From a virus, in IMG/VR virus record IMGVR_UViG_3300045988_058553, positions 119,095 to 183,094 of that record: DNA of 64,000 bases. The stretch is one strand, 5' to 3'. The translations under genes were made by a program, and so were the position numbers. Positions 51,273-51,344 of the stretch are shown here, in pieces; the first letter of the stretch is position 1, and each line of letters starts with the position of its first letter. The notes beneath the pieces are model-generated. The model ran no database searches. It was not told the origin of the DNA and worked only from the letters and a program-made list of their open reading frames with translations.

Positions 51273-51344
51273 TGCCCTATGGTGTAATGGTCAGCACAGA
51301 TGACTCTAAATCATTTAGTCTGGGTTCGAATCCTAGTAGGGCAA
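51273..51344 (+). tRNA. tRNA-Sup(CTA), amber suppressor derived from tRNA-Gln
   Basis: TGCCCTA-TG-GTGT-AATGGTCA-GCAC-A-GATGA-CTCTAAA-TCATT-TAGT-CTGGG-TTCGAAT-CCTAG-TAGGGCA-A. Anticodon CUA. The scaffold is near-identical to tRNA-Gln(TTG) at 34,399. Confidence 0.7.

Follow-up and report, generated by a model that had tools for sequence, protein, structure and literature searches.

What does a phage do with a tRNA gene whose anticodon reads a stop codon, and from where was the gene obtained? This question is raised by a tRNA gene with the anticodon CUA, tRNA(CUA), at positions 51273 to 51344 on the plus strand of a 64,000-nucleotide (nt) stretch of the IMG/VR virus record IMGVR_UViG_3300045988_058553, the whole of which is referred to as the window. 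The reading preferred here, to which a probability of about 0.85 is assigned, is that the gene encodes a functional amber suppressor of glutamine identity, with whose help the packaging and structural genes of a crAss-like phage would be translated by genetic code 15, TAG being read as Gln.

Transfer RNA genes were called in the window by ARAGORN and by the Rfam tRNA covariance model RF00005 (gathering score 29). ARAGORN places an anticodon CTA at 51273-51345 on the plus strand and a tRNA-Gln(TTG) at 34398-34470 on the minus strand, and the covariance model matches 51273-51344 and 34399-34470 with 66.3 bits each, the former over model positions 1-71 as a full-length cloverleaf. To the 21 tRNAs found by ARAGORN two are added by Rfam, leading to a union of 23, among which the CUA tRNA is the only one on the plus strand, as the initial annotation of this DNA had stated. 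The tRNA genes and tRNA-like elements concerned are the following.

51273..51344, plus strand: tRNA(CUA), Gln-type amber suppressor (ARAGORN, Rfam, covariation, CUA in 51/51 relatives)
34399..34470, minus strand: phage tRNA-Gln(UUG), closest paralogue of the suppressor (ARAGORN, Rfam; 54/72 positions identical to the CUA tRNA)
28971-29043, minus strand: tRNA-like element that reads as tRNA-Ala(UGC) (Rfam 39.5 bits; missed by ARAGORN)
33563-33639, minus strand: weak tRNA-like element (Rfam 31.6 bits; missed by ARAGORN)

The acceptor stem of the CUA tRNA (TGCCCTA/TAGGGCA) contains a U1:A72 pair and is followed by the discriminator A73, while CCA is not encoded. The D arm reads GTGT-AATGGTCA-GCAC, and the anticodon arm GATGA-CUCUAAA-TCATT comprises a 5-bp stem and a 7-nt loop with U33 and a purine at position 37; a 4-nt variable region and the T arm CTGGG-TTCGAAT-CCTAG complete the molecule. 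In an alignment of ten variants (the window copy, eight copies from relatives and the Gln paralogue) 98.1% of the cells are paired according to the cloverleaf, compared to 78.5% after shuffling and 42-54% with slid pairing partners, and compensatory changes are found in 11 of the 21 stem pairs. Acceptor pairs 2-7 vary freely, while U1, the weak 1:72 pair and A73 are invariant. The anticodon is CUA in all 51 relatives in which the gene was detected, always upstream of the terminase large subunit gene (TerL), and the complete tRNA sequence is identical in 30 loci. The same combination of D arm and CUCUAAA loop occurs in 77 IMG/VR contigs, almost all of them belonging to this large-genome lineage; among GenBank phages no near-identity match was found for the 11 kb around the tRNA. 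The gene is a real tRNA whose structure is under selection, and the initial claim of a tRNA with a CUA anticodon at this locus is confirmed by ARAGORN, the covariance model and covariation alike.

Translated with the standard code, the plus-strand sequence that follows the tRNA breaks up into fragments. With TAG read through, open reading frames (ORFs) of at least 150 amino acids (aa) cover 0.71 of it instead of 0.31, among them ORFs of 793, 748 and 518 aa; recoding of TGA or TAA in this late block was rejected, since read-through of either leaves the coverage unchanged. TerL, portal and tail protein become full-length once TAG is read through:

56036..57205, plus strand: two TAG-recoded genes, 56036-56608 (6 TAGs) and 56639-57205 (3 TAGs), in which TAG makes up 33-38% of the Gln codons
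57208..59568, plus strand: TerL, 15 in-frame TAGs, 48% of the Gln codons (phrog_6681, E = 3.9e-62)
59766..61937, plus strand: portal protein, 36 in-frame TAGs, 64% of the Gln codons (phrog_6547; full-length 723-aa homologues)
62133..63680, plus strand: tail protein, 2 in-frame TAGs (phrog_5302, E = 1.1e-86)

No TAG is found among the Gln codons (0%) of nine minus-strand replication and metabolism genes, helicases, exonuclease and NAMPT included, and these genes are therefore translatable without a suppressor.

The meaning of the codon was derived from 64 related loci anchored on TerL. At the TAG positions of the window the relatives carry TAG 2017 times and another codon 1429 times, of which 1061 (74%) are CAA or CAG, with Glu next at 8%, and in the reverse comparison 735 of 1242 (59%) of the codons opposite a TAG of the relatives encode Gln, all these counts being drawn from related genomes. 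Because relatives lacking TAG at these positions mostly use CAA or CAG, TAG in the window is, as judged from these alignments, read as Gln, which corresponds to genetic code 15. For annotation, code 15 has to be applied to the window starting at about 50.7 kb, as well as to several genes of the minus strand.

These data also bear on what else the tRNA might do. ARAGORN labels any CTA anticodon as 'tRNA-Pyl', and a second suppressor-type tRNA is present in the window (see below); a pyrrolysine tRNA, an inserter of another amino acid than Gln, or a relic beside another decoding tRNA might thus be considered. Such readings are scarcely credible given the canonical cloverleaf with its 5-bp anticodon stem, normal D loop and 4-nt variable region, the strong covariation, the invariant anticodon, the alignment of TAG with Gln codons and the equal degree of recoding in clades without the second tRNA. 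The identification as tRNA-Pyl in particular is contradicted by cloverleaf and codon alignment, the label being the ARAGORN default for CTA. A main role in harming host translation or defence by read-through of host TAG codons, with phage decoding being secondary, has been raised as a possibility by Yutin et al. (PMC7886860), and the UUA anticodon of the second tRNA does indicate that suppressor alleles persist without matching recoding. Nevertheless, decoding is indispensable for TerL and portal, two conserved genes with 51 in-frame TAGs between them, and the CUA anticodon never varies, which renders such a role improbable.

The origin of the gene is best approached from the phage tRNA-Gln(UUG), of which the initial annotation regarded it as a near-duplicate. 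Both form the most similar among the 253 tRNA pairs of the window, with 78% gapped identity, the mean being 57 ± 6%. Aligned by structural position, the two agree in 54 of 72 nucleotides (75%), and in 46 of 55 (84%) outside the anticodon arm. The designation as near-duplicate is too strong for two genes that differ at 18 of 72 positions and are separately conserved across the relatives, where the tRNA-Gln(UUG) lies in a conserved Phe-Gln array about 17 kb from the CUA tRNA and occurs in two allelic types. The individual resemblances named at the time fared better: ten of the 18 differences indeed fall into the anticodon arm, including its stem and positions 32 and 38, the D stem and loop are shared except for one loop position, and U1:A72 is common to both. 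The T arm is largely shared, with two differences, and the acceptor stem in part, pairs 3:70 and 4:69 being flipped from G-C to C-G.

When bacterial genomes were scanned for the D arm, Prevotella, Alloprevotella, Prevotellamassilia and other Bacteroidales turned out to possess a chromosomal tRNA-Gln(UUG) with the same D arm (in common form GTGT-AATGGTYA-GCAC), U1:A72 and A73. U1:A72, put forward as a Gln feature, is therefore present but generic to Bacteroidales tRNA-Gln, and D arm, U1:A72 and A73 on their own do not demonstrate a duplication. As a Gln-specific marker the D arm had to be rejected, the same 19-mer being found in 73 tRNA-His genes of the Candidate Phyla Radiation.

The gene might also have been captured separately from a bacterial tRNA-Gln or a bacterial suppressor, with the likeness between the two phage tRNAs reflecting common tRNA-Gln ancestry only. 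Besides the generic nature of the shared elements, this would be in line with the phage tRNA-Gln(UUG) being about as close to the host-type tRNA-Gln (79%) as to the CUA tRNA (75%), and with the TAG suppressor of the beta group of crAss-like phages, presumably acquired from bacteria (Yutin et al., PMC7886860). The CUA tRNA itself, in contrast, is closer to the phage than to the host-type tRNA-Gln, overall (75% vs 64%), outside the anticodon arm (84% vs 73%) and in the acceptor stem, T stem, variable region and positions 26 and 73 taken together (77% vs 57%). The T stem and acceptor positions 5-7 are common to both phage tRNAs and absent from the host tRNA-Gln. Furthermore, the bacterial-genome scan gave no such tRNA(CUA) beyond two contigs, L177 being phage lineage filed as a metagenome-assembled genome (MAG). 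A separate capture is thus considered unlikely, and the CUA tRNA is, on these comparisons, at best a diverged paralogue of the phage tRNA-Gln(UUG). The simplest history would lead from a host-like tRNA-Gln to the phage tRNA-Gln and further to a paralogue turned suppressor, the direction of the duplication being inferred from the identities given above. A recent duplication was rejected on account of the 46/55 identity outside the anticodon arm, the flipped acceptor pairs and the separate conservation; it would also not agree with a CUA tRNA that is identical in 30 loci at a fixed place while the tRNA-Gln is found separately as two allelic types.

The anticodon loop deserves a closer look. It reads UUUUGAU in the tRNA-Gln(UUG), with U32 and U38, and CUCUAAA in the suppressor, whose C32, A37 and A38 are also present in the phage tRNAs for Phe, Trp, Ser(UGA) and Tyr, all readers of U-initial codons, with tRNA-Leu(UAA) as the exception. 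In an efficient amber suppressor, such a loop is to be expected from the 'extended anticodon' rules, and judged by these patterns its differences look adaptive.

The immediate neighbourhood of the gene gives hints as to how it may be transcribed. The minus-strand block of the window ends at about 49447 and the plus-strand genes start at 49719, with the following arrangement around the tRNA.

49719..50570, plus strand: HNH / endonuclease VII-like gene without TAG (PHROG endonuclease matches), a variable insertion of about 1 kb
50733..51134, plus strand: conserved 133-aa ORF directly preceding the tRNA unit, 3 in-frame TAGs, no Pfam match
51148..51267, plus strand: 39-aa coiled-coil-like ORF, whose TAA stop ends 5 nt before the CUA tRNA
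51362..51589, plus strand: first downstream ORF (75 aa), starting 17 nt past the CUA tRNA, no Pfam match
52653..53650, minus strand: three genes (130, 63 and 113 aa) with 2, 1 and 1 in-frame TAGs, interrupting the plus-strand block

The 133-aa ORF is located upstream of the tRNA in 51 of 51 relatives; its alignment is free of TAA and TGA, and TAG is mostly aligned with TAG (83 times) or CAA (19 times). The region of 52.6-53.8 kb had been considered as a non-coding gap, which was rejected in favor of the three genes with in-frame TAGs on the minus strand; equally sized genes are predicted in the relatives L322-L327. No in-frame TAG is present in the six ORFs examined between 51362 and 55825. 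Among the ten neighbouring ORFs, eight have no Pfam match at E <= 0.01 and the remaining two only sub-threshold coiled-coil matches, and no aminoacyl-tRNA synthetase or release-factor domain was detected by Pfam in the ten ORFs around the tRNA. A scan for sigma-70 promoters and terminators was uninformative, with 25 promoter-like sites compared to 30 expected and thus no enrichment.

Since the gaps of 5 and 17 nt leave no room for a private promoter or terminator, the CUA tRNA is likely to be co-transcribed with its immediate neighbours and freed by RNase P and RNase Z. The initial annotation had located the gene at the 5' edge of the late module and supposed its co-transcription with the late genes. 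It lies indeed only about 1.6 kb from the strand switch, but HNH gene, 133-aa ORF and 39-aa ORF come first, and the presumed co-transcription is likely for the immediate neighbours, while a single transcript from the tRNA to TerL and portal is not implied, because the minus-strand islet 52653-53650 intervenes.

The same islet, which parts the tRNA unit from the TAG-rich structural genes, together with the absence of TAG from the six ORFs that follow the tRNA, would fit an early or middle 'code switch', in which the suppressor is made before the late mRNAs and gates their translation, as in the published model of Borges, where suppressor production precedes the alternatively coded genes (10.1101/2021.08.26.457843). 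Contrary to this, the 133-aa ORF directly upstream in the tRNA unit has 3 TAGs, so that the tRNA's own unit needs suppression, and sigma-70-type motifs are not enriched; an early switch is accordingly regarded as a tentative alternative for the timing, somewhat less probable than not.

In a more distant clade, to which L033, L034, L042 and L060 belong among others, a conserved hairpin, AGCTAGTT-loop-AACTAGCT, is found within the 30 nt that precede the tRNA(CUA); it ends 4-5 nt before the tRNA, at the place where the clade of the window has the 39-aa ORF. This hairpin may be a processing or promoter-associated element.

Taken together, a Gln-identity suppressor would function as follows. The CUA tRNA would be transcribed within the tightly packed plus-strand unit, released by host RNase P and RNase Z and provided with CCA by the host CCA-adding enzyme. 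Host glutaminyl-tRNA synthetase (GlnRS) would then charge it with Gln by means of the kept U1:A72, A73, D arm and U35, and the charged tRNA would decode the in-frame UAGs of TerL, portal, tail and neighbouring genes. In terms of evolution, it would represent a diverged paralogue of the host-like phage tRNA-Gln(UUG) with its anticodon loop remodelled from UUUUGAU to CUCUAAA.

Several points weigh against this reading. Expression, charging enzyme, RNA processing and timing of the CUA tRNA are predictions. In E. coli, U35, G36 and U38 are identity elements of GlnRS; U35 is present here, while G36 and U38 are absent, with A36 and A38 instead. An A at position 36 is required in an amber suppressor, and supE shows that the loss of G36 is tolerated. 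The 36 TAGs of the portal gene require near-complete decoding, which implies some relief from the competition of release factor 1, and nothing in the window, about one third of the genome, explains such relief; no synthetase or release-factor gene adjoins the tRNA among the ten ORFs mentioned above. In addition, the TAG/Gln counts do not represent independent events, and the order host tRNA-Gln, phage tRNA-Gln, CUA tRNA rests on few informative sites, tRNAs being short.

Dependence on the suppressor would extend to mobile genes on the minus strand. Three GIY-YIG genes are situated among the minus-strand tRNA genes and, because of their in-frame TAGs, depend on suppression even though they lie on an otherwise standard-code strand.

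21132-21767, 25801-26451 and 41491-42234, minus strand: three paralogous GIY-YIG homing-endonuclease genes with 4, 5 and 3-5 in-frame TAGs, respectively (38-67% of the Gln codons)
45028-46218, minus strand: 396-aa ORF with 7 in-frame TAGs, located closely downstream of a pistol ribozyme and without a match in Pfam or PHROG

In five further minus-strand genes (23978-24430, 24868-25437, 27350-27787, 31400-31840 and 46839-47312) a TAG is found 1-9 codons before a TAA or TGA. There, TAG is probably a real stop, with the close back-up stop limiting the extension under an active suppressor. In the first 20 kb of the window (1-20 kb) TAG is used by no gene.

The second suppressor-type tRNA, which was missed in the initial annotation, is encoded on the minus strand next to a structured RNA.

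47915..47984, minus strand: second Gln-type tRNA, anticodon UUA here (ARAGORN, Rfam; U1:A72, A73)
48011..48217, minus strand: RAGATH-14 RNA motif, 26 nt 5' of the second tRNA (Rfam 156.6 bits, gathering score 149.1)

In the relatives, the second tRNA and the CUA tRNA are spaced by either 2.3-2.4 kb or 2.9-3.4 kb, a difference on which the reading of the HNH gene as a variable insertion is based. Among its orthologues (L001-L059) the anticodon is CUA in 19 loci, UUA in eight and the window, and CUG in L047, with aberrant loops of 6 nt in L006 and L007 and an odd one in L025. Pairing in the family amounts to 96.4%, with compensatory changes in six pairs and an unvarying U1:A72. Clades without the second tRNA (e.g. 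L033) or with CUG or damaged-loop alleles keep 15-17 TAGs in TerL. Since clades without a working second suppressor are still TAG-recoded and the anticodon of the CUA tRNA never varies, the latter suffices; on this comparative evidence the plus-strand CUA tRNA is to be regarded as the principal suppressor and the second tRNA as auxiliary.

A recoding of TAA alongside the UUA tRNA was rejected by comparison of about 148,000 codons with the relatives, in which no in-frame TAA was found in any real gene frame of the window: the 27 TAA or TGA sites of the window that fall inside long ORFs of relatives are all off-frame or located in antisense pseudo-ORFs. The second tRNA thus flips between CUA, UUA and CUG without matching TAA recoding, and a tRNA changed from TTG to TTA in alpha-group crAss phages is likewise not accompanied by TAA recoding (Yutin et al. 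2021, PMC7886860). Four relatives, L001, L005, L009 and L014, have kept the dyad of RAGATH-14 and second tRNA; when IMG/VR was scanned with a strict motif, all matches belonged to this lineage, and no mention of RAGATH-14 was found in the literature searched. A second Gln-type tRNA behind RAGATH-14 with such anticodon variation appears to be unreported.

A different kind of variation affects the principal suppressor gene itself. In four relatives with a TAG-recoded TerL no tRNA was detected upstream. In L023 and L030 a syntenic tRNA(CUA) gene is nevertheless present there, split between U35 and A36.

L023:1886-2957 (same contig as L244): intron-split tRNA(CUA) locus
L030:3053-4110: intron-split tRNA(CUA) locus
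L333, L334, L337-L343 and L348-L351: further intron-split loci

The inserts comprise 969-1003 nt; the 5' exon ends with U and the insert with G. Each insert carries an ORF for an HNH endonuclease (Pfam PF01844) and a non-coding part of about 170 nt, which can be drawn as P3-P4-P5-P6-P7-P3'-P8-P7'-P9 with a P3/P7 pseudoknot and contains elements which we take to resemble the classical P, Q, R and S sequences of group I introns. The core sequence is GTGAACGACTAAACAGAG. In 11 copies 94% of the positions of this structure are paired compared to 32-46% in slid controls, with ten compensatory pairs; none of the 11 copies has an unpaired P3, P4, P6 or P7. The assignment to group I is provisional, as Rfam is blind to the intron (no match to the L023 intron at E <= 1) and the structure model was derived from the same sequences. 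Scans for the core retrieved 5 viral and 19 metagenome stretches. Removal of the insert in silico yields a tRNA(CUA) recognized by ARAGORN in 12 of 12 loci with both exons, L023, L030 and ten more, leading to seven distinct tRNAs, all with U1, whereas the unspliced genes are missed by ARAGORN and Rfam. In the window the CUA gene is intact and no copy of the intron core is present, and the HNH gene of the window (49719..50570) is unrelated to that of the intron.

On balance, we lean slightly towards the suppressor locus being, in several lineages, the homing site of a mobile HNH-encoding group I intron, where the tRNA would arise only after self-splicing and the gene is hidden from tRNA finders. 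If true, this would explain part of the long-noted TAG-recoded phages without a detectable suppressor tRNA, and RNA splicing would add a step to the control of the code change; the split genes offer a concrete, testable explanation for the share of only about 40% of recoded phages in which surveys detect a suppressor tRNA. Group I introns at position 35/36 were recently reported in tRNA-Asn and tRNA-Asp of Patescibacteria, mostly without endonuclease genes (PMC13011429). The insertion site, the U that closes the 5' exon, the G at the intron end and the concealment from tRNA finders are alike; unlike these, the predicted intron described here resides in a phage amber-suppressor tRNA and contains an HNH ORF. 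A literature search gave no report of group I introns in phage suppressor tRNAs, and intron-split suppressor genes in phages appear to be unreported. Together with the variable second tRNA, the intron-split alleles are leads of more weight than the CUA tRNA itself.

Two further structured RNAs are located on the minus strand of the window.

46280-46348, minus strand: pistol self-cleaving ribozyme (Rfam 63.3 bits, gathering score 34.5)
26522-27086, minus strand: gene resembling transfer-messenger RNA (tmRNA) (Rfam 57.6 bits, gathering score 47; not called by ARAGORN)

A tRNA-like domain is recognizable in the tmRNA-like gene, as is an insertion of about 173 nt, and the putative tag frame, read by eye from the alignment, would be ATYSEVRMAA followed by UAA. 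In two relatives (L047:10001-13528 and L059:10001-13529) the match to TerL covers about 3.5 kb rather than 2.36 kb, with many internal stops, the insertion being a probable intron or intein. About 7.5 kb past the right end of the window, relatives carry a reverse-transcriptase gene (Pfam RVT_1; L322:19553-20845 and equivalents in L323-L329) in the structural block, where a gene of about 2170 aa follows closely downstream; the reverse-transcriptase gene may be part of a diversity-generating retroelement or of a group II intron.

The TerL of the window is 26-28% identical to Crassvirales terminases (cr52_1, cr109_1 and others), the portal protein has thousands of full-length relatives, and the contigs of the relatives measure about 175-197 kb. 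The phage is taken to be a large crAss-like one of about 175-195 kb, probably with a Bacteroidales host. L144 (DXLM01000001.1, 'Bacteroides sp. HRGM_Genome_0403', one contig of 186,052 bp) and L177 are filed as bacterial genomes in a GTDB-based collection; both align to the window at 80-99% identity, carry the same tRNAs and appear to be phage genomes mislabelled as MAGs.

In order to relate the locus to known systems, it was compared to other recoded phages. The 'code-change module' of Jade phages combines a suppressor tRNA with an aminoacyl-tRNA synthetase as well as a release factor upstream of the lysis genes (10.1101/2021.08.26.457843). In both cases a suppressor tRNA heads alternatively coded genes, while neither a synthetase nor a release-factor gene is found among the ten ORFs beside the CUA tRNA. 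In the phAss-1 group two or three tRNA-Sup-CTA genes per genome have been described, with a Gln isotype score (PMC10607447). Several suppressor tRNAs, TAG read as Gln in virion genes and the lack of a dedicated synthetase in the searches are common features; lineage (unrelated), predicted hosts (Bacillota) and tRNA sequences are different.

The closest resemblance is to the 'Zeta' group of crAss-like phages as described, with 145-192 kb, which size, tRNA load (23 in the window), TAG recoding of late genes and introns fit. Both are large gut phages with TerL and portal proteins of distant crAss type, many tRNAs, a phage tRNA(CUA), TAG read as Gln mainly in late genes, standard-code replication genes and abundant introns and homing endonucleases (PMC7886860). 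Recoding of TAG to Gln with suppressor tRNAs in crAss-like phages, as well as the division into standard-code replication genes and alternatively coded structural genes, has already been published (PMC7886860; 10.1101/2021.08.26.457843), and the reading of TAG as Gln was confirmed by proteomics (Peters et al. 2022, PMC9523058). The kinship of the suppressor to the phage tRNA-Gln, the remodelling of its loop and its fixed place upstream of TerL are not described in these reports (PMC7886860, 10.1101/2021.08.26.457843, PMC9523058). The mechanism as such is known, and the CUA tRNA adds a well-documented case of TAG-to-Gln suppression in large crAss-like phages: a clear example of a phage enforcing a private genetic code, in which TAG makes up as much as 64% of the Gln codons of a gene.

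Suppressors derived from tRNA-Gln are familiar from E. coli, namely supE (glnV, CUG to CUA) and supB (glnU, UUG to UUA), and the psu2 ochre suppressor of phage T4 derives from the T4 tRNA-Gln. Similar to these and to the TTG-to-TTA tRNA of the alpha group (PMC7886860), a tRNA-Gln has been turned into a nonsense suppressor with predicted retention of Gln charging, and the second tRNA family displays a supE/supB-like series of CUG, CUA and UUA. In the case of the CUA tRNA, the putative series from host-like tRNA-Gln via phage tRNA-Gln to remodelled suppressor can be read in one genome. Contrary to the suppressors of E. coli, T4 and the alpha group, which arise by single-base changes of the anticodon while the tRNA otherwise stays as it was, it differs from its paralogue at 18 positions and constitutes a fixed, essential gene rather than a mutant allele.

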